Source: Armatimonadota bacterium (GTDB lineage Bacteria > Armatimonadota > SYMT01). Taken from it: a stretch of 64,000 nt of DNA. The stretch lies in contig JBKBRF010000007.1 of NCBI GenBank assembly GCA_046292385.1, positions 48,728 to 112,727 on the forward strand, given 5' to 3'. Shown here piece by piece: positions 1,728-60,398 of this stretch (positions are counted from its first letter, which is position 1; each line of letters opens with the position of its first letter). Both the position numbers and the translations under genes were made by a program. The notes under the pieces were generated by a model, which saw only the letters and a program-made list of their open reading frames with translations, was not told the DNA's origin and made no database searches.

Positions 1728-2690
1728 ATGCGTGAGTCAGTGGAGCCGTTCTGCCCAGGACGATACGCCGCGATCGATGTCGGGAGCCATTCGGTGCTGC
1801 TCCTGGTGGCCGACGTGGACGAAGAAGGCCGGTTGACGCCGGTGGCAGACGGCGCCCGCGCCACCCGTCTCAGCGAGCGGTACTACATCCGCAAGCGGCT
1901 GAGCCGTCCCGCGCGCGACCGCACCCTGGAGGCGATCTGCGACTTCAGCCGCATCGCGCGCCGCTGCGGCGCGGAGGGGATTGCCGCGGTCGGCACCTCC
2001 GTCCTGCGGGACGCGCCGAACGGCACCGAGTTCCGCTCGCAGGTCCGCCAGGAGTGCGGCCTCCCGATCGAGGTGATCACCGGCGAGCAGGAGGCGGAGC
2101 TGGCCTACGAGGGGAACCTTCACGACCGCCTTCTGCCGGCCTGCGACGGCGAGCGGGTCGTGATCGACGTCGGCGGCGGCAGCACGGAGCTGGTCCGCGG
2201 CATCGGCGGCACCCTCACCTCTCGCGTCAGCTTCCCGATCGGCGCGGTCCGCCTCACGGAGAGCTTCCTCCGGAGCGATCCGCCGTCCGCGGCGGAGTGC
2301 GCGGCGGCGGAGGCGGCGGTGGAGCAGGCGTTCTGCGACGTGGAGCCTCTGCTGCCCGCTTCGGTGCTGATCGGCTCCAGCGGCACGGTCTACAACCTCA
2401 CTCGGGTCGCCATCGCGGGCGGACTGATCCCGGCGGAGAAGGTGCACGGCGCGGCGCTCCCGCATACGCGGGTGGCGGAGCTGGTCGACCTCTTCCGCAG
2501 CCTGCCGATCAAGTTTCGCAAGCGGGTCCCCGGGCTGGAGCCGGAGCGCGCCGACGTGATCTTCGCCGGCGCCATGATCCTCCACCAGGTGATGGCGCGG
2601 CTCTCCGCCACGCAGCTGACCACCAGCAGCAACGGCGTCCGCCACGGCTGCATCTACAACATGGCCCGCCGCGCCCTGCTCAAGCGGTAA
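1728..2690 (+). CDS. Ppx/GppA family exopolyphosphatase
   Basis: Motifs IDVGSHSVLLL, GEQEAELAY, IDVGGGSTE and RADVIFAG. Confidence 0.9.
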   Translation: MRESVEPFCPGRYAAIDVGSHSVLLLVADVDEEGRLTPVADGARATRLSERYYIRKRLSRPARDRTLEAICDFSRIARRCGAEGIAAVGTSVLRDAPNGTEFRSQVRQECGLPIEVITGEQEAELAYEGNLHDRLLPACDGERVVIDVGGGSTELVRGIGGTLTSRVSFPIGAVRLTESFLRSDPPSAAECAAAEAAVEQAFCDVEPLLPASVLIGSSGTVYNLTRVAIAGGLIPAEKVHGAALPHTRVAELVDLFRSLPIKFRKRVPGLEPERADVIFAGAMILHQVMARLSATQLTTSSNGVRHGCIYNMARRALLKR

Positions 2691-2729
2691 GCTGCCGGGC
2701 TGCGCTCGACGAGATGGGTGGCTCGTTAT

Positions 2730-2820
2730 CAGGTTGTCAGGTTACAGGTTGGCAGGTTCCGAACCCCGTCTCCGGAGTGCCTGACTTGCAGCTTGCCAAC
2801 TTGCTAACCTACGAACCTGC
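2730..2820. repeat. Short tandem repeats (CAGGTT x4) with an inverted AACYTRC array
   Basis: CAGGTT at 2730, 2738, 2745 and 2753; AACTTGC/AACCTAC/AACCTGC at 2798-2820. Confidence 0.75.
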
Positions 2821-2877
2821 GTGATGCGACAGGTCCGCCGTCTCTCGGCAGACAATCTCTCACCGGAGGTGGCCTCG

Positions 2878-3774
2878 ATGCGCGTTCTCAAGAGCCTGGG
2901 TGCGGTCCTCATCGGTGCGGCGGTCCTGGCCGCGGCTCCCGGAGCGAGTGAGGAAGGGCGGATGCTGCCGCTGACCCTGCGCCGGCAGGTGGAAGCGGGC
3001 GGCCGGTTTACGCCGCAGGAGACGAAGGTCCGCTGGAAGCCTGCGGAGACGGCGGTGATCGTGATCGACATGTGGGACCGCCACTGGTGCGCCGGCGCGA
3101 ATCGCCGCGGCGCGGAGCTGGCCCCGCGGGCGGACCGCTTCGTCGCCCGCGCCCGGGAAGCGGGAGCACTGATCGTTCACGCCCCCAGCGGCTGCATGGA
3201 GGCGTACCGCGATCATCCCGCCCGCCGCCGCGCCCAGAGCGCCCCGCCTGCCCCGAACCTGCCGGAGGGCATCGAGAAGTGGTGCTACTCGATCCCGGCG
3301 GAGGAGCGCGGCAAGTACCCGCTGGACCAGACCGACGGCGGCTGCGACTGCCAGCCGAAATGCGCCACCAGCAATCCCTGGAAGCGGCAGATGGACGCGA
3401 TCCGCATCCGGGACGAGGACGCGATCAGCGACTCCGGGCCGGAGGTCTGGAACCTGCTGGAGCAGCGCGGCATCCGCAACGTCCTGATTCTGGGGGTCCA
3501 CACCAACATGTGCATCCTGGGCCGCCCGTTCGGGCTGCGGAACATGGCGCGCTTCGGGAAGAACGTCGCGCTCGTCCGCGACCTCACCGACACGATGTAC
3601 AATCCCCGGGCCTGGCCCTACGTCGACCACTTCCGCGGAACCGGGCTGATCGTGGAGCATATCGAGAAGTACGTCTGCCCCACCGTCTCCTCGGAGCAGC
3701 TCCTCGGCGGGAAGCCGTTCCGCTTCCGTGAGGCTCCCACGCCGGAGCCGAAGCGCGGCAGCGACGCGGAATAG
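2878..3774 (+). CDS. Secreted isochorismatase/nicotinamidase-like cysteine hydrolase
   Basis: GGAGG SD, signal peptide, VIVIDMWDRHWC and GVHTNMCILGR motifs. Confidence 0.8.
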   Translation: MRVLKSLGAVLIGAAVLAAAPGASEEGRMLPLTLRRQVEAGGRFTPQETKVRWKPAETAVIVIDMWDRHWCAGANRRGAELAPRADRFVARAREAGALIVHAPSGCMEAYRDHPARRRAQSAPPAPNLPEGIEKWCYSIPAEERGKYPLDQTDGGCDCQPKCATSNPWKRQMDAIRIRDEDAISDSGPEVWNLLEQRGIRNVLILGVHTNMCILGRPFGLRNMARFGKNVALVRDLTDTMYNPRAWPYVDHFRGTGLIVEHIEKYVCPTVSSEQLLGGKPFRFREAPTPEPKRGSDAE

Positions 3775-7198: not shown

Positions 7199-7416
7199 GG
7201 AAGGGTTCTCCCGTCTGGCCGGCGCCGCAGCCCGGCAGCACTGGTGTGGCAACAGAAAGTTGGACGCCGCCCCGCGCGCCAGGGTTACCCCCCCTCTGGC
7301 TTAGCGGCCGGCTCGCTCACTGGTGAGGCCCGACTGGGTGCAAGGGAGAGTGGGAGAAACCGCCCTCGGGAGCAGGGCTCGCTTGCCGGGTACGGTAGCA
7401 TTCCGGGAGCGCCATT

Positions 7417-7501
7417 GAGAAAGAGAATGAGAAGGAGAAAGAGTAGGAGTGTCCGTACCGGAAGGTTCGGATTCATCCCGCATTCTTCCGCCCTCATCCC
7501 T
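7417..7501. repeat. Short tandem repeats (GAGAAA-like hexamers, then TTCATCC-like heptamers)
   Basis: gagaaagagaatgagaaggagaaagagtaggag, then gattcatcccgcattcttccgccctcatccct. Confidence 0.6.
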
Positions 7502-7607
7502 CTAGCTCCCGTGCTCTCCTTTGCACCGACTCAGTTCCGCGTGAGGCGGGCACTGGCGGGGGCGGGGTAAAATAGCTTTCGTCATCGGAACCCAGAGGAG
7601 TGCACCC

Positions 7608-20151: not shown

Positions 20152-20334
20152 ATGAGGATGCCGACGCGAATACGAGGAAAGGCCGCCGGCCGCAGTGAGC
20201 TGGCCCGGGACGCGCACTTCCGCACCGGCGGAGGTGCGATGGGCGGAAGCCGGAAGCTGCAGGCGAAGCGGCGGCGCCGGGCGGATCGGCTGGAGGAGCA
20301 GCGCGCCGCCCGCGAGCGGGAGCAGGCCGAGTAG
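20152..20334 (+). CDS. Small basic hypothetical protein (60 aa)
   Basis: AGGA/GGAG upstream, host-like codons, followed by a hairpin (GCCCGC TC GCGGGC). Confidence 0.45.
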   Translation: MRMPTRIRGKAAGRSELARDAHFRTGGGAMGGSRKLQAKRRRRADRLEEQRAAREREQAE

Positions 20335-20420
20335 GCGTGACACGAAAGCCCGCTCGCGGGCGGGAACCTCCGGTTGAAGATTCGGGTCTTTATAGATAGC
20401 TCTCCCCGAGCACCCCTTCG

Positions 20421-20870
20421 ATGCGACGACGCACCCCGTCAATCTGGCTCGCCCTCTACCTGGCCGTTCTGCTCCCGCTCCTGGGAGCGGGTGGGCCGGC
20501 GGCATGGGCGTGCGGCGAGCAGTCCGGCTGCTCCGGCCATGCTGCGGGATGCGACGGACCGGGACAGGCGTGCGGCACCGAGTGCGGCCACGGCGCCTCC
20601 GCGAAGGCGGACTGCTGCGCCGCGGGCCACTCCGAGAGTCCGTCGGTCTCCGCAGGCGACTGCGTCTGCGTGGTCGAATCGGCTCCGGCGCCCGATCTCT
20701 ACCGGGTGGTCGTCGCGGCCGAGGTGCCGATCGCGGCGCCTCCCAGCGTTCCCCTGCTCCTGAGCGCCCCGCGCGCGATCCGGGTGCGCCAGCGCAGCAC
20801 GGCCCCCGCCGCGGTGCGGGGACCCCCACTCTCTCCTCTCGGCTCGCGCGGACCTCCGCGCCTCGGATAA
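20421..20870 (+). CDS. Secreted Cys/His-rich leader protein with C-terminal RGPP motifs (DUF2946/CruR/CutF-like arrest-peptide candidate)
   Basis: Signal peptide, 9 Cys and 3 His, Pro-rich linker, ends VRGPPLSPLGSRGPPRLG. Confidence 0.75.
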   Translation: MRRRTPSIWLALYLAVLLPLLGAGGPAAWACGEQSGCSGHAAGCDGPGQACGTECGHGASAKADCCAAGHSESPSVSAGDCVCVVESAPAPDLYRVVVAAEVPIAAPPSVPLLLSAPRAIRVRQRSTAPAAVRGPPLSPLGSRGPPRLG

Positions 20871-21029
20871 CTGCGTCTCCCACGGGAGACCCCTGACGGC
20901 CGCCGGCCTGGAGCCCCTCCGGCTCCGGAGCTCCGCGCGGGGTCCGGCTTCGGACCACCCGACTCGTCAACTTGCAGTTATCCGGCCCCGATGGGCCATT
21001 GCCCCCGCACGTGGGGCAGAGGAGAAGTC

Positions 21030-21527
21030 ATGTCTCGTTTCATTCAGATCGCCCTGGCCGTCTCCGGCCTCTCCGTCTTCGCCTTCGGTCTCGCGGGCGC
21101 GGCTCCCAAGGCAGCCGCCCCGGCCGCGAAGCAGCCAGCCTGCTGCGCGCAGAAGAAGGAGTGCTGTGCGGAGAAGAAGGCGTGTTGCACCACCGCCAAG
21201 CCGGCCGCGTGCTGTGCCGAGAAGAAGGCGTGCTGCGACAAGAAGGACGCCGCCTGCTGCGCCAAGACCGCGGCGGCCGCGGCTCCGGCCTGCTGCGTGG
21301 AAAAGAAGGCCTGCTGCGACAAGAAGGCCGCCTGCTGTGATCAGCACCACGCCGCGGCGGACTGCTGCGTGAAGGGCGCCGAGTGCTGCGCGAAGGGTGC
21401 CGAGTGCTGCACCACCGCGAAGAAGGCCGCCGCGATGGACTGCTGCGCCGCCCCGGCCAAGGCCGTTTCGGTGAAGAAGGCGGCTGCGGTGAAGAAGGCC
21501 GCCATGCCGTGCTGCGAAGAGCGCTAA
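21030..21527 (+). CDS. Secreted Cys-Cys-repeat, metallothionein-like protein
   Basis: AGAGGAGA SD, signal peptide, 14 CC doublets (28 Cys) in Ala/Lys-rich repeats. Confidence 0.85.
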   Translation: MSRFIQIALAVSGLSVFAFGLAGAAPKAAAPAAKQPACCAQKKECCAEKKACCTTAKPAACCAEKKACCDKKDAACCAKTAAAAAPACCVEKKACCDKKAACCDQHHAAADCCVKGAECCAKGAECCTTAKKAAAMDCCAAPAKAVSVKKAAAVKKAAMPCCEER

Positions 21528-21550
21528 GCGGCTGAGCGATCGCTCGTGAG

Positions 21551-21585
21551 CGAGGGAGGGGTCTCCGGATCCCTCCCTCGTTTCT
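21551..21585 (+). terminator. Intrinsic terminator after the CC-repeat gene
   Basis: CGAGGGAGGG...CCCTCCCTCG stem followed by TTTCT. Confidence 0.7.
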
Positions 21586-21676
21586 GTCGCGGCCGGAAGA
21601 GACCGCTCTACCTTCGTTGCCATCCGGGCGCCGCCGCCGCTACAATCCCGGGTAGAGCCTCATTCAGGATGCGCAG

Positions 21677-22117
21677 ATGACACAGGTAGTCGTGATCTCG
21701 GATCGGAACTTCCGGCAGGAGATCTGGGCGGGGGACCACACCCTCGTCGCGGACGAGCCCCGGGAGCTGGGCGGCGACGATACCGGCGCCACCCCGTACG
21801 AGCTGCTGCTCGCCGCGCTCGGCGCCTGCACCTCCATCACGCTGCTGATGTACGCGCGCCGGAAGGGGTGGGAGCTCCAGGCGGTGGAGATCCGCCTCCG
21901 GCACAACCGCGTCCACGCGAAAGACTGCGCGGAGTGCGAGGAGAAAGACAGCTACCTGGACCGGATCGAGAAAGAAATTGCGGTCTCCGGCAATCTCTCC
22001 CCCGAACAGGTGGAGCGGCTGGCGGAGATTGCGGAGAAGTGCCCGGTGAACCGCACGCTGCGTGCGTCGATCGTAACGAAGCAAGAAATCCGCCTGGCCG
22101 CCGCGGGCTCCGCCTGA
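21677..22117 (+). CDS. OsmC family protein
   Basis: ADEPRELGGDDTGATPYELLLAALGACT and EIAEKCPVNRTL motifs. Confidence 0.92.
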   Translation: MTQVVVISDRNFRQEIWAGDHTLVADEPRELGGDDTGATPYELLLAALGACTSITLLMYARRKGWELQAVEIRLRHNRVHAKDCAECEEKDSYLDRIEKEIAVSGNLSPEQVERLAEIAEKCPVNRTLRASIVTKQEIRLAAAGSA

Positions 22118-22194
22118 AGGTCCGGTCGCCAGGCTCCCGTTCCCCTCTCTACTGCGGCTCTGCCCTCCCGGGCAGTAGACCGAGGAGTGTCCCG

Positions 22195-22836
22195 ATGATC
22201 AAGTCCCGAATGCGTTCCTATGCCCTCGCCGGCGCCGCGGTGCTGGCCGCGACCGGAATCGCCCGCGCCGCCGTCGACGCGGAGCCGATCCCCGCGGACT
22301 ACCTGCAGCAGCTCGCGCCGATCGCGCTGCAGCTCTTCCAGGACCAGTTCCCCAACCCGCCCGTAAAGGTGACCGCCAACCTGGAGAAGGTGAGCGGCTA
22401 TCACGTGATGCAGCAGGTCGGCGTGGTGGTGATGCCGGACAAGAACCTCACCGCCGACGCCGTGGCGAAGAGCGCGGAGAAGGAAGCGCCCGCCGCCATC
22501 GTGGTGGCGCGGGGCCTGACCTTCAAGAATAAAGACAAGGCGGTCCCCGCGGAGCGGATCGCCAACGCCGACCTGGGCCAGGCGAAGCTGCCGGTCTACT
22601 TCTTCGCTGTGAAGGGAGAGGGCGAGGAGCGCTCGCTCCTGATCTACTCCAAGGACGCGGAGCCGATCGCGACCGCTCCGATGAAGAAGCGCGAGACGGC
22701 CGGCACCGATCAGTTCGAGCTGAAGCTCGCCAACGTGGACCTGGAAAAGAAGACCGCCGAGCTGAAGGTCGGCGTTGGCGGCACCCACGAGACGACGCTG
22801 AACCTGGAAGTGCAGAAGGTCGAGCCGCTGCAGTAG
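22195..22836 (+). CDS. Secreted hypothetical protein
   Basis: GAGGAG SD, signal peptide, strongly host-like codon usage. Confidence 0.8.
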   Translation: MIKSRMRSYALAGAAVLAATGIARAAVDAEPIPADYLQQLAPIALQLFQDQFPNPPVKVTANLEKVSGYHVMQQVGVVVMPDKNLTADAVAKSAEKEAPAAIVVARGLTFKNKDKAVPAERIANADLGQAKLPVYFFAVKGEGEERSLLIYSKDAEPIATAPMKKRETAGTDQFELKLANVDLEKKTAELKVGVGGTHETTLNLEVQKVEPLQ

Positions 22837-57503: not shown

Positions 57504-59816
57504 ATGAGACACCGGGACCTGCTCACCACCCTTCCGGCGGCGCTGCTGCTGGCGTTCGCAGGCGCTCCTGCCCACGCGGCTGCGTTCACCGTCACCCAGC
57601 TCGGCGACAGCGGCGCCGGGTCCCTGCGACAGGCCGTCGCGGACGCCAACGCGGCGGCGGGGGCGGACATCATCAACTTTCAAGAAGGGCTCAGCGGGAC
57701 GATTATCCTGACCGCCGGCCCGCTGACGCTTACCGGATTCCTGGAGATCCAGGGTCCAGGCGCCGCCACTCTGGCGGTGAGCGGGAACAACGCTTCCCGC
57801 GTCTTCGCTGTCGACCCCGGAGCCACGGTGCTGATCCGCGATCTCGCGATGCGGGATGGAAAGTATGCCGGTCCCGAGTCCGGCGGCGGGGGCATCTACA
57901 ACCGGGGTGACCTGCGGTTACTCGACTGCGTTCTCTCGAACTGCACGGCCCCCGCGGGTGTCGGCGGCGGGATCTTCAACGAGGGTGCCCTGATGGTGCT
58001 CAGTACTACCCTGCGGGACAACACTGCCCCGATCGCGGGTGGGGGCCTCTTCAATCTCCAGGGCACGGTGGTGATGCGGAGCTCGCTCCTGGTCACCAAC
58101 CGGACCACGGACCCGGACCTCACTCGGGGCGGCGCTGGGATCGACGTCGAAGGCGGGACGCTTTTCGCGGACCGGTGCATCTTCGATCGCAACCGGGCGA
58201 GCCGGTCCGGCGGGGCGCTGCTGATCGCTCCCACCAGCTCGGTAACCCTGACCGAATGCCACCTCATCTCGAACCAGGCGGTGCGGAGCGGCGGTGGCGT
58301 TCTGAACAGCGGCACTCTAGCTCTGAACGACTGCAGCATCGTGGACAATACTGCCGTCATTTCGGGGGGCGGTGTGGAGAACTTCGGTGGCCTGACGGTC
58401 TCCAGCAGCAGCTTCTCCGGCAATAGCGCCAGTGACGCTACTCTCAGCGAGGGGGGTGGTCTCTTCAACAGCGGCAATGCGGCGCTGAGCCACTGTTCGT
58501 TCGCGCAGAACCGGGCCCCGCGAGCCGGCGGCGGGATCTTCAACGACGGGATCCTGACGGTGACGAGGAGCGCGCTTTCCCAGAACAGCGCAGGAGTGGG
58601 GGCCGGCCTCGCCAACGTTGGAACCGTAACCGTTTTCCGCAGCTCCTTCGAGTCAAATAGCGCCGGCATCGCGGGAGGCGCCCTCGGCAGTGGTGGCGGA
58701 AACGTCTCGCTGACCGAGTGCCGGCTCTTCGCGAACTTCGGCGCCGAGCGGGGCGGCGGCGCGCACGTCGACGGCGGCATTCTGACCGCGACGGCCTGCA
58801 CGATCGTGGGGAACGGCACCGGCGGCCTGGGCGGCGGCCTCCTGAACCGGGGCGACACGACGGTCCGGCGATGTACGATCAACGGTAACATCGCGTCCGA
58901 GGGCGGCGGCATCCTGAACCAGCCGCTGGAGATCGTCGAAGGGCCCGGGCCTGGAGGCAGCCCCGGGACGATCCGGTTGGAGAACAGCACGCTTTCGAAT
59001 AACCGTGCCTTCCTTGGCGGCGGTCTCTCGAACCAGGCGGTGGCGCTGCTCGTCAACTGCACGTTCTACGACCATTCCGCCAGCGACGGAGAGGGCGGCG
59101 CCCTGCGGAACAGTGGGATCGTCCGCCTGGGGAATACCCTCCTCGCCCGCAGCGGAGTCGGCCGCAATTGCCTGAATCTGGGCCTGATCTCGTCCGAGGG
59201 ACACAACCTGGACAGCGACGGCACCTGCGGACTCTCCGGGTCTGGCGACCAGAGCGGCACCATCGGCATGCCGATCGATCCGCTGCTCGGCCCGCTCCAG
59301 AACAACGGCGGTCCGACACAAACGCATGCGCTCCTGACCGGCAGTCCCGCCATCGACGCCGGGGACGATGGCCAGGCGTCCGGAACGGTGGACCAGCGCG
59401 GCTTCTCCCGCTTCGCGGACGGGGATGGGGATCGGGTCGCGGTCGTAGATATCGGGGCCTTCGAGCTCGGCTTCTTCCCCCCCGAGCCTCTCGGCGATCC
59501 TGGCACGCGGCTCCTCGCCTACTCGACGATCCAGGATCCGACCACCTCTCTTCCGGAAGGGACCCAGGCGTTCAACCTGACCCTCCGCTACGCGGCGAAC
59601 GTGGTGCCCGGGACCCTCTCGGTGAAGCTGAATGGAGTAGACGTCACCGGGCTCTTCAACCCGGTTCCGAGCGGTGTCGAGACGGTGGCGCTGCCGCTGC
59701 GCCGCGGCCCGAACCTCTTGAGTCTCAAGGTGAAGGGAACCGTCGGGGGAAAGATGATCGAAGAAGTGGACACACTCCGCTTCATCGTGGGGGATCCCGC
59801 GTTCGGACCTAAATAG
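57504..59816 (+). CDS. Secreted right-handed beta-helix protein with a choice-of-anchor Q domain
   Basis: [10 protein letters not shown]; many N.A..GGG(I/L).N repeats; [36 protein letters not shown]. Confidence 0.9.
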
Positions 59817-59879
59817 CGCCGGAACAGCCGGGGCGGTGTTCGGCCAAAGGGGCGCGGGTGCGAAGGATTCGCGCCCGTG

Positions 59880-59920
59880 CCCCGAAAACCTGACCGCTGA
59901 AACCCCGACCCCTGAACCCC
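59880..59920. repeat. Heptamer-type tandem repeat (CCTGAAC/CCCGAAA-like)
   Basis: cccgaaaacctgaccgctgaaaccccgaccctgaacccc. Confidence 0.55.
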
Positions 59921-59921
59921 T

Positions 59922-60398
59922 ATGACAGAAACCTTCCACCCGATCCGCCTGCGCCTGGTCTGCGGCCCCCTGCCCGCGCGGGACTTCGACTGCTGGCGCG
60001 ACGTCCGGCTCGGCATCCAGATCGGCAAGGAGGTCTTTCCGGGGGAGGCGGGGCCGGACGGCGCCCTCACCTTCGAATGCGAGGCGTCGGTCTCGCCCCG
60101 CGGCCGCGAAGGGGCGCCGCTCTTCCGGGGGAAGGCGGTCCACGGCACGCCGGAGGCGCGCTTCCTCTATCTCTCCTGGTCCGCCCACGTGCGCCGGGGC
60201 GACGGCCGCTACGGCGGGCGAGAGATGTTCCGGCGGATCAAGATCCACCTCTCGCCCGTCACGCCGGAACAGGCGGAGGAGGCGCTCCGCACCGGCGGGC
60301 TGCTGGAGGCGCGTCTTTCCGGCGTCGGGAAAGACGGCACCCCCGCCTGCGCCTCCGTCCCGCTCCTCGACGGAGGCTGGGCGGTGCGCCCGGCTTAG
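59922..60398 (+). CDS. DUF5990-like hypothetical protein
   Basis: FRGKAVHGTPEARFLYLSW, FRRIKIHL and DGTPACASV motifs. Confidence 0.75.
   Translation: MTETFHPIRLRLVCGPLPARDFDCWRDVRLGIQIGKEVFPGEAGPDGALTFECEASVSPRGREGAPLFRGKAVHGTPEARFLYLSWSAHVRRGDGRYGGREMFRRIKIHLSPVTPEQAEEALRTGGLLEARLSGVGKDGTPACASVPLLDGGWAVRPA

Follow-up and report, generated by a model that had tools for sequence, protein, structure and literature searches.

How is a gene for a secreted cysteine-rich protein controlled when it directly follows a gene whose product ends in motifs known to arrest ribosomes? The question is raised by a 64,000-nt stretch of an Armatimonadota genome (assembly GCA_046292385.1, contig JBKBRF010000007.1, positions 48,728 to 112,727, hereafter the window), in which two short open reading frames (ORFs) follow one another on the forward strand: ORF1, which carries the tetrapeptide Arg-Gly-Pro-Pro (RGPP) twice near its C-terminus, and ORF2. 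The answer that we favour, though with reserve, is that ORF1 is an arrest leader comparable to CutF and CruR, which would unmask the ribosome-binding site of ORF2, probably in response to a thiol-loving metal. What this analysis establishes is the anatomy of the locus, the conservation of the ORF1 family, the avoidance of the motif, the association of the family with metal genes in synteny and the pairing as a prediction.

A preliminary description of the locus, made from the letters alone, had reported ORF1 with its cysteines and histidines, both RGPP motifs, the complementarity between an anti-Shine-Dalgarno (anti-SD) stretch and the Shine-Dalgarno (SD) sequence of ORF2, the hairpins of the spacer, the 28 cysteines of ORF2 and a terminator, and all of these were recovered at the following positions of the window:

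20421-20870, plus strand: ORF1, the leader gene, 149 residues, an exported Cys-rich protein with an R[AG]PP tail (sequence and homologues)
20421-20510, plus strand: signal peptide, residues 1-30, with an MRRR n-region, a hydrophobic core and A-W-A (read by inspection)
20511-20669, plus strand: Cys/His-rich segment, presumed sensor, residues 31-83, with W-x-C-x-x-G-x-x-C, CC and CxC (alignment)
20670-20816, plus strand: weakly conserved Ala/Pro-rich linker, residues 84-132 (alignment)
20817-20828, plus strand: proximal RGPP, residues 133-136, in frame (sequence)
20828-20839, plus strand: anti-SD ACUCUCUCCUCU, codons Leu-Ser-Pro-Leu, pairing with 21018-21028 in the minimum free energy (MFE) fold
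20847-20858, plus strand: distal RGPP, residues 143-146, in frame, three residues before the stop (the invariant motif of the family)
20871-21029, plus strand: structured spacer of 159 nt, with hairpins at 20875-20890, 20941-20956 and 21000-21018, all in the MFE fold
21018-21028, plus strand: SD region of ORF2, AGAGGAGAAGU, predicted from the fold to be masked in the free mRNA
21030-21527, plus strand: ORF2, a secreted, Lys-rich CC-x5 repeat protein of 165 residues (sequence)
21548-21587, plus strand: terminator-like hairpin with a U-rich tail (fold)

The ORF1 family, its invariant tail and the genes that follow it

ORF1 has no match in Pfam or NCBIfam, a word-indexed search returned only ORF1 itself among 438 candidates and, used as a single query against 61 relatives, it gave nothing but noise apart from itself. 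An exhaustive search of representatives yielded two relatives (P0002 and P0003, E ~1e-17), and a search with ORF2 led to loci in two genomes of the same taxonomic family, each with a CC-rich secreted protein, in which the preceding ORF has a signal peptide, the motif W-x-C-P/Q-D-G-T-P-C, more cysteines and the ending RPPP-x7-SRAPP-x2-stop. A weaker match of the same ORF2 search provided a further family locus (L009), and three others (L008, L011 and L012) contain neither a CC-rich ORF nor a leader. A profile run against 401 genomes of the phylum located the family at 10 places in nine of these genomes, always with the R[AG]PP tail; a pattern scan of species genomes, built on a seven-sequence alignment, matched 39 stretches, eight of which were confirmed and four of these were new, and a metagenome scan contributed at least one family locus (L043). 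Two paralogues of ORF1 are present in the window's own genome, on contigs C8 and C10. By its sequence, ORF1 is a member of an unannotated Armatimonadota family, whose members share 18-38% identity with it and are found in several genera with the same architecture.

The product of ORF1 contains 9 Cys and 3 His, including the pairs CC (65-66) and CxC (81-83), and ends with AAVRGPPLSPLGSRGPPRLG before the stop. Its putative signal-peptide cleavage site was read from the sequence by inspection, and the AlphaFold2 (AF2) model places a helix at residues 8-22, with a mean predicted local distance difference test (pLDDT) score of 90 over residues 11-20. After the signal peptide, the family shares the motif W-x-C-x-D-G-T-P-C and further conserved cysteines. 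In an alignment of 18 sequences (A5), the invariant positions are W29, C31, C37, C81, R143, P145 and P146; four Cys/Trp positions are therefore among them, and the conservation of the cysteines that the preliminary description had proposed to examine is borne out at these positions. R[AG]PP is present in all 18 aligned members, with the stop 2-6 residues later, and, among the best 8000 candidates scored in the database, in all 16 further matches besides ORF1, each of which ends with [SG]RAPP plus 2-6 residues and contains no Pfam domain. In 18 of 18 members, the Arg of R[AG]PP follows the last invariant Cys by 57-65 residues; its distance from the Trp varies from 97 to 133, and the length of the sensor segment differs among members. 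In 7 of the 18 rows of A5, a motif of the type x-x-P-P lies 11 codons before the distal one (RPPP in L014-L016, SPPP in L022, RAPP in L044, REPP in L045 and FAYP in L028), and RPPP occupies the same position in L009, which is outside A5; in the window, the two RGPP motifs are 10 codons, or 30 nt, apart.

That ORF1 is not a gene at all, but a chance frame in GC-rich DNA belonging to the untranslated leader of ORF2, is barely credible in view of these homologues and their common architecture. It draws on the G+C content at third codon positions (GC3), which is 0.82 in ORF1 and about 0.92 in the neighbouring genes and falls to about 0.6 in the final 50 nt of ORF1, on the lack of an obvious SD upstream of the ATG and on a 304-residue frame that overlaps ORF1 on the opposite strand. 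However, the G+C content of this opposite frame is flat over the three codon positions (0.75, 0.73 and 0.70), and GC3 gives a coding signal for ORF1 over 20500-20800, weaker than that of its neighbours. A consensus promoter/terminator scan reported no promoter upstream of ORF1. The near-identical DNA contigs X2, X4 and X7 show zero differences in the ORF1 tail or in the spacer, and the contigs of one metatranscriptome run (X12) cover only 20300-20683 and 20989-21147, a coverage in which DNA carry-over is possible.

The motif at the end of ORF1 is avoided in the rest of the genome. In a crude set of 4224 genes, RGPP was observed 5 times against 51.8 expected (ratio 0.10) and RAPP 8 times against 68.4 (0.12), and the reversed motifs occur at expectation (PPGR 52 against 51.8, ratio 1.0; PPAR 65 against 68.4, ratio 0.95). 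This depletion matches the proteome-wide exclusion that has been reported (PMC12992588). It is also the only indirect support in these data for an elongation arrest with Pro codons in the P and A sites. The roughly ten-fold avoidance is difficult to reconcile with ORF1 being a mere periplasmic metal-binding protein or chaperone that partners ORF2 and whose RGPP tail has no regulatory role, a reading suggested by its signal peptide, its nine cysteines and its position beside another secreted Cys-rich protein. The R[AG]PP next to the stop is the only invariant block beyond the N-terminal Cys motif, the mature protein is predicted by AF2 to be disordered and CutF, its closest analogue, undergoes degradation once exported (10.1101/2022.11.11.516240), so that we regard this reading as very unlikely.

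A co-directional gene follows the leader in all the related loci for which enough DNA is available, with the following products:

L017: CusB/HlyD-type adaptor
L028: adaptor with a heavy-metal-binding domain (HMBD)
L021 and L029: OEP/TolC proteins
L027: YtkA-domain protein
L016, L018, L022 and C8: unannotated outer-membrane-like proteins starting with HEPLWGE
C8: MerP/HMA-like protein, after the paralogous leader
The window, L014, L015, L019, L043 and L009: secreted CC-repeat proteins (six loci)

The control of metal-related genes that had been proposed for this locus finds its counterpart in the relatives, which precede genes of metal efflux or metal binding; the target in the window is a CC-repeat protein with a putative metal-binding function.

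Two observations concern the 5' side of the leaders. Most leaders in L013-L022 have no recognisable SD within 20 nt before their start and several have a -10-like box 6-12 nt upstream (TATAAT in L019, TATGAT in L020); in this comparison, which also took in 20385-20420 of the window, the mRNAs may be leaderless or short-leader. Directly 5' of ORF1, the window contains a strongly basic ORF of 60 residues (20152-20334, plus strand), coding-like by its GC3 of 0.85 and with no family match.

Predicted masking of the ribosome-binding site and the ribosome that would open it

The stretch TCTCCTCT (20832-20839), situated between both RGPP copies, is complementary without mismatch, in antiparallel orientation, to AGAGGAGA (21018-21025), which ends 4 nt before the ATG of ORF2 (21030). 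The MFE fold of 20800-21050 is more stable than expected (z = -3.1), and its closing helix is formed by ACU-CUCUCCUCU with AGAGGAGAAGU; searches of the spacer region against Rfam gave only sub-threshold chance matches. The anti-SD:SD helix has a probability of 0.93 in nine of the 12 fold windows, namely all those that end by 21150, whatever their 5' end, and of 0.13-0.91 once long parts of ORF2 are included, the purine-rich repeats of Lys codons in ORF2 competing with the helix in the longer folds. The anti-SD uses the rare codons TCT and CCT, each of which accounts for 3.7% of the Ser or Pro codons of the genome, and the codons CTC TCT CCT recur in L043.

Predicted masking of the SD by the leader tail recurs in the family. 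In all eight loci folded first, the MFE structure has the SD of the following gene paired with the leader tail, and such pairing is predicted in 13 of the 14 family loci analysed, with helices of different sequence; this count excludes L020, L022, L028 and L030, in which the beginning of the following gene is not fixed. Among the loci with pairing are L009 and, with a probability of 0.82, the C8 paralogue; outside the ORF1 family, pairing is predicted in two unrelated leaders (C70, 0.91, through the codons after RGPP and the stop; C3, 0.68). In the relatives, the partner of the SD consists of the codons just past R[AG]PP or of a stretch over the stop, and in L043 of the Pro codons of RGPP (probability about 0.6). 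The expectation that the anti-SD would be conserved thus stands for the predicted masking of the SD by the tail and not for its placement, which in most loci is after the motif or over the stop rather than between two motifs. Tail-SD duplexes in 10 loci are stronger than those of dinucleotide shuffles (Fisher p = 3.4e-4) and of other windows of the same loci (p = 1.7e-5), and perfect complementarity extends over 7.0 nt in cognate tail/SD pairs and 5.43 nt in non-cognate ones (permutation p = 1.5e-4), both tests overstating independence because some loci are close kin.

Which ribosome would open the helix was modelled by holding positions -14 to +15 relative to the P site unpaired, with the following probabilities of an unpaired SD and costs of opening it:

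Free mRNA: 0.02; 8.6 kcal/mol
Ribosome on the proximal RGPP: 0.35; 4.3 kcal/mol
Ribosome on the distal RGPP: 0.03; 10.5 kcal/mol
Ribosome terminating at the stop: 0.02; 7.1 kcal/mol
Ribosomes on both motifs (disome): 0.35; 4.3 kcal/mol

The proposal that a stall on the first RGPP frees the SD agrees with these thermodynamic models, in which the proximal motif, which is not conserved, is the only one that puts a single ribosome over the anti-SD of the window (0.02 to 0.35). The spacing of 30 nt between the motifs is about one ribosome footprint, and a queued second ribosome therefore offers an alternative cover for the anti-SD.

The mechanism that we propose would operate as follows. ORF1 and ORF2 would constitute a two-gene unit, with ORF1 as its regulatory leader. 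ORF1 would be exported co-translationally and, at the C-terminal R-G-P-P codons, peptide-bond formation would stall, as has been demonstrated for other RAPP/RGPP arrest peptides; at that point, the Cys-rich segment (residues 31-83) would probably already be across the membrane, given the roughly 60 residues between it and the motif, which is approximately what exit tunnel and translocon channel together would hold. The ribosome-binding site of ORF2 would, in the free mRNA, be paired with the pyrimidine stretch 20828-20839 inside the end of ORF1, and a ribosome held over this stretch would break the pairing, allowing the translation of ORF2; this ribosome may be either arrested at the first RGPP or queued behind one arrested at the second. 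The state of the exported Cys segment would most likely set the duration of the stall. As in CutF, the likeliest signal is that this segment binds a thiol-loving metal, for instance Cu(I), Ag, Hg or Cd, and the product of ORF2, a periplasmic protein with 14 Cys-Cys pairs, would sequester such metals. The arrest, the signal with its polarity and the function of ORF2 are the parts of this scheme that we infer.

A bolder version can be formulated, in which arrest at the distal motif parks the following ribosome on the proximal motif and the anti-SD, so that ORF2 would be switched on only when a queue forms, giving a sharper, collision-dependent response, and in which the target would represent a new class, a periplasmic soft-metal sponge of vicinal Cys pairs in heptad-like CC-x5 repeats. 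Taken as a whole, we consider this version unlikely; among the papers listed by a literature search, none was relevant to a tandem or collision-type RAPP arrest.

Several results weigh against the arrest-leader interpretation of ORF1. In the model, the SD stays paired when a single ribosome occupies the invariant distal RGPP, and also when a ribosome is terminating at the stop. The conservation of RGPP anticipated by the preliminary description applies to the distal motif, which is invariant as R[AG]PP, and not to the proximal one, which reads RLIA in P0002 and RLVA in P0003, the two closest relatives. In the fold of the whole region 20400-21590, the helix has a probability of only 0.04-0.09 per pair, with the SD still mostly paired. 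In L043, when a ribosome is modelled on RGPP, an upstream CUCUCUC stretch takes over the masking. Tail-SD pairing is lacking in the C10 paralogue (0.0) and little of it is predicted in the secDF leader of C24, outside the family (0.12); the p values of single loci are weak (0.015-0.67), and anti-SD-like strings are frequent because Pro, Ser and Leu codons are pyrimidine-rich. As for the sensor, the AF2 model of ORF1, computed with 18 sequences, has a pLDDT of 55.7 and is confident only in the signal-peptide helix, and no metal site was modelled because of its poor quality. Finally, no further metal gene adjoins ORF1-ORF2 in the window.

An alternative reading is plain translational coupling, in which ORF1 is constitutively translated, a passing or pausing ribosome opens the SD, R[AG]PP only prolongs the pause, nothing is sensed and the cysteines serve a periplasmic role of ORF1. 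Because the anti-SD lies within the coding sequence of ORF1, every translating ribosome would briefly melt the helix, and the AF2 model provides no folded sensor. However, coupling assigns no obvious role to the conserved spacing of 57-65 residues between the Cys and the motif, and the invariant Cys pattern, together with the recurrence of the leader before metal efflux or binding genes, points to a regulated stall, as in CutF and CruR (PMC9426467; 10.1101/2022.11.11.516240). Simple coupling is, in our judgement, not a likely account of the locus.

Relation to known arrest leaders

The nearest known system is CutF, a DUF2946 protein exported by the Sec pathway, in which copper-induced stalling melts a stem-loop that shields the SD of cutO (10.1101/2022.11.11.516240; 10.1101/2025.02.05.636593). 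CutF of Rhodobacter capsulatus (cutFOG) is a small Sec-exported protein that carries a Cys motif and, at its C-terminus, a Pro-rich stalling motif, and it directly precedes a metal-detoxification gene, features that ORF1 would share; the SD of that gene is shielded by an anti-SD stem-loop, as is predicted for ORF2, and the opening of the stem-loop requires, in CutF, translation and export of the leader. ORF1 differs from CutF in that it does not match PF11162, its Cys pattern is W-x-C-x-D-G-T-P-C with others, and not CxxxC, its motif is R[AG]PP and occurs twice, and its anti-SD lies inside the coding sequence of the leader; furthermore, the targets of its family are a CC-repeat protein or parts of resistance-nodulation-division (RND) efflux systems instead of a multicopper oxidase, and ORF1 comes from Armatimonadota.

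CruR (Bp2923) of Bordetella pertussis, also a DUF2946 protein, combines RAPP with CXXC in a copper-dependent control that is Rho-dependent and in which copper relieves the stall (PMC9426467), and its arrest at Pro-Pro has been demonstrated in a cell-free system (PMC12992588). It resembles ORF1 in size (145 and 149 residues) and as a leader of a metal-linked operon. In contrast to the scheme proposed for ORF1, CruR functions independently of its signal sequence and its target is a TonB-dependent transporter; its CXXC lies 45 residues from the motif, whereas the ORF1 family has a single invariant Cys at 57-65 residues. In the C81-V-C83 of ORF1, only C81 is invariant, and neither the CXXC of CruR nor the CxxxC of CutF is found at a fixed distance.

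Since CruR acts through Rho (PMC9426467) and the window has a spacer of 159 nt, a transcriptional control or the opposite polarity can be envisaged for ORF1-ORF2 too: the stall would shield the spacer from Rho and the ligand would relieve it, so that metal would switch ORF2 off. We judge this quite unlikely, given the strong structure of the spacer, which contrasts with the unstructured C-rich rut region of cruR, the specific masking of the SD in the predicted folds and the expectation that metal would induce efflux or sequestering genes rather than repress them.

The assignment of ORF1 to DUF2946, which the preliminary description had suggested checking with a hidden Markov model (HMM), was rejected: PF11162 matched none of 11 family members at E <= 1, and nothing in the six frames of the genome at E <= 0.01. 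Other Armatimonadota loci (such as L031, L034 and L038) have weak true DUF2946 matches with a different architecture. A separate locus, L033 (G040:C1, minus strand), contains a DUF2946-like ORF (CFYCDW) that is interrupted by TAG and continues in frame as TSSRAPPAI before the stop, which could be a case of read-through, a sequencing error or a decaying leader.

More generally, RGPP and RAPP stall ribosomes in several sequence contexts and are avoided proteome-wide, both motifs occur near the C-termini of small secreted proteins before metal genes in many phyla, and seven peptides of Streptomyces lividans arrest translation (PMC12992588). By their description, the S. lividans arrest peptides with conserved Cys/His (e.g., SLIV_16130) and the small secreted proteins of that survey are similar to ORF1: they are small, either secreted or membrane-bound, have R[AG]PP close to the C-terminus together with conserved Cys/His, and precede genes related to metals. 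The main text of that paper makes no mention of efflux, TolC, Armatimonad, tandem or anti-SD, and its supplements may list members of the ORF1 family. With ApdA, ApdP and SecM, which precede secDF and secA, ORF1 would share an arrest chemistry of RAPP or RAGP in the peptidyl-transferase centre, the secretion of the leader and the activation of the following gene by the stall (PMC7897499; PMC10951233; PMC12992588), but those proteins sense export activity, not metal, and have no conserved Cys pattern.

The novelty claimed in the preliminary description was thus overstated, since both the SD-masking stem-loop of CutF and RAPP/RGPP leaders with Cys/His sensors before metal genes have already been published (PMC9426467; 10.1101/2022.11.11.516240; 10.1101/2025.02.05.636593; PMC12992588). 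To judge from sequence comparison, the ORF1 family is a new, unannotated family of a known type of switch, described between 2022 and 2025, with a new type of target and an unusual two-motif layout. The class of metal-linked RAPP/RGPP leaders (CruR, CutF and the Streptomyces peptides) is extended to the scarcely studied phylum Armatimonadota, gains a putative sensor domain with no detected similarity to DUF2946 and becomes linked to metal efflux of the RND type, as well as to secreted proteins built of Cys-pair repeats, which form an undescribed family. Furthermore, the SD-masking geometry, which recurs with differing sequences, supplies natural variants for testing the reach of a stalled ribosome.

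ORF2 and further leaders in the same genome

The product of ORF2 has a hydrophobic, signal-like N-terminus and 28 cysteines, all within 14 CC pairs. In the six CC proteins of the family loci, 106 of the 109 cysteines are in CC pairs and 22 of the 47 pair-to-pair spacings are exactly 7. Vicinal Cys-Cys pairs are ligands of Hg(II) in MerT and MerA. ORF2 is comparable to metallothioneins and Mer proteins for its high Cys content (28 of 165 residues) and differs from them in having no family match and in being secreted, Lys-rich and built of CC-x5 repeats; if the CC-x5 proteins do bind metal, they would represent a new kind of extracytoplasmic metal buffer. No match was found in Pfam at E <= 1, nor in NCBIfam, metallothionein families included, at E <= 1 or 0.01; a word-indexed search gave nothing at E <= 0.001 among 8000 candidates and missed ORF2 itself, composition filters being the likely cause. 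In the protein Atlas, the model of ORF2 has a pLDDT of 0.39, the best feature matches (0.85-0.86) are to Acidobacteriota clusters and serve as leads only, and all the structure matches have a template modelling (TM) score below 0.3. In the metagenome locus L043, the CC-repeat gene is followed by a second secreted Cys-rich protein (1814-2236, plus strand) with CC, CxxC and 'AFF' motifs.

After ORF2, the terminator-like hairpin consists of 13-16 bp followed by UUUCUGU (dG -44.8 kcal/mol for a 76-nt stretch, z = -4.69), and is absent from the output of the consensus promoter/terminator scan. Beyond it, a promoter-like site at 21617-21646 (plus strand; TTGCCA-18-TACAAT, 10 of 12 matches) precedes an OsmC-like gene at 21677-22117 (plus strand; PF02566, E = 8.5e-18), with a weak match, below cut-off, to the OsmC-related (seleno)protein family NF041052; this gene appears to be a unit separate from ORF1-ORF2.

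The window's genome, read in all six frames, contains 128 ORFs of 50 residues or more that carry R[AG]PP within their last 12 residues; 16 of them pass a coding-like filter and seven of these, judged by eye, start with a hydrophobic segment (ORF1 and those of C8, C10, C3, C4, C24 and C70). There are hence about seven R[AG]PP leaders in one genome, preceding secDF, a ZnuA operon, a MerP-like UxxU protein, outer-membrane proteins and the CC protein, an indication that this organism may rely on nascent-chain sensing as a general means of regulation.

The C24 leader (59595-59984, minus strand; L048:3096-3485) has 129 residues with a hydrophobic N-terminus and ends with GRAPRAPPCLS; 147 nt downstream lies a SecDF of 938 residues (Pfam SecD_SecF_C, E = 1e-56), secDF being the classical target of peptides of this kind, and the leader is a candidate ApdA/ApdP-like monitoring substrate in Armatimonadota. 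The C70 leader (7222-7584, plus strand; L046:523-885) is DUF2946-like, with H-x-C, CPAC and the ending ASRGPPHS, and is followed by an unannotated protein of 451 residues, ZnuA (E = 4.9e-51) and a further ORF. The C3 ORF (192721-193254, plus strand) is Cys-rich with a hydrophobic N-terminus, ends with SSPSRAPPASER and precedes unannotated secreted proteins and a MetA-like outer-membrane protein, and the C4 ORF (8534-8911, plus strand), also with a hydrophobic N-terminus, ends with LGLRAPPAA about 350 nt before carbonic anhydrase and SulP.

Of the two paralogues of ORF1, that of C10 (137781-138173, minus strand) has a hydrophobic N-terminus and ends with APRGPPAA. The C8 paralogue (22129-22605, minus strand; L044:2130-2606) contains GWTCPNGDAC and ends with GRAPPGRTAAGPRAPPSR; it has a tandem RAPP, with the two copies 11 codons apart, and a perfect 10-nt anti-SD, CUCCCAGUCG, directly after the distal one.

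The MerP/HMA-like secreted protein found on C8 (L044:1495-2037, minus strand) is also present in L022 (oriented 2049-2834) and L016 (oriented 2602-3456). Its gene has an in-frame TGA at both metal-binding Cys positions, in the context KG[AV]T-TGA-A-T-TGA-GITLRKGLQRLDGV, which is kept in the three genomes. UxxU metal-binding selenoproteins are listed as a family in a review (PMC13188914). With TGA read as selenocysteine, the protein gives matches at E ~2.5e-8, short of the curated cut-offs, to MerP and to NF041115 (UxxU metal-binding selenoprotein); tRNA-Sec, SelA and SelB are present in the window's genome.

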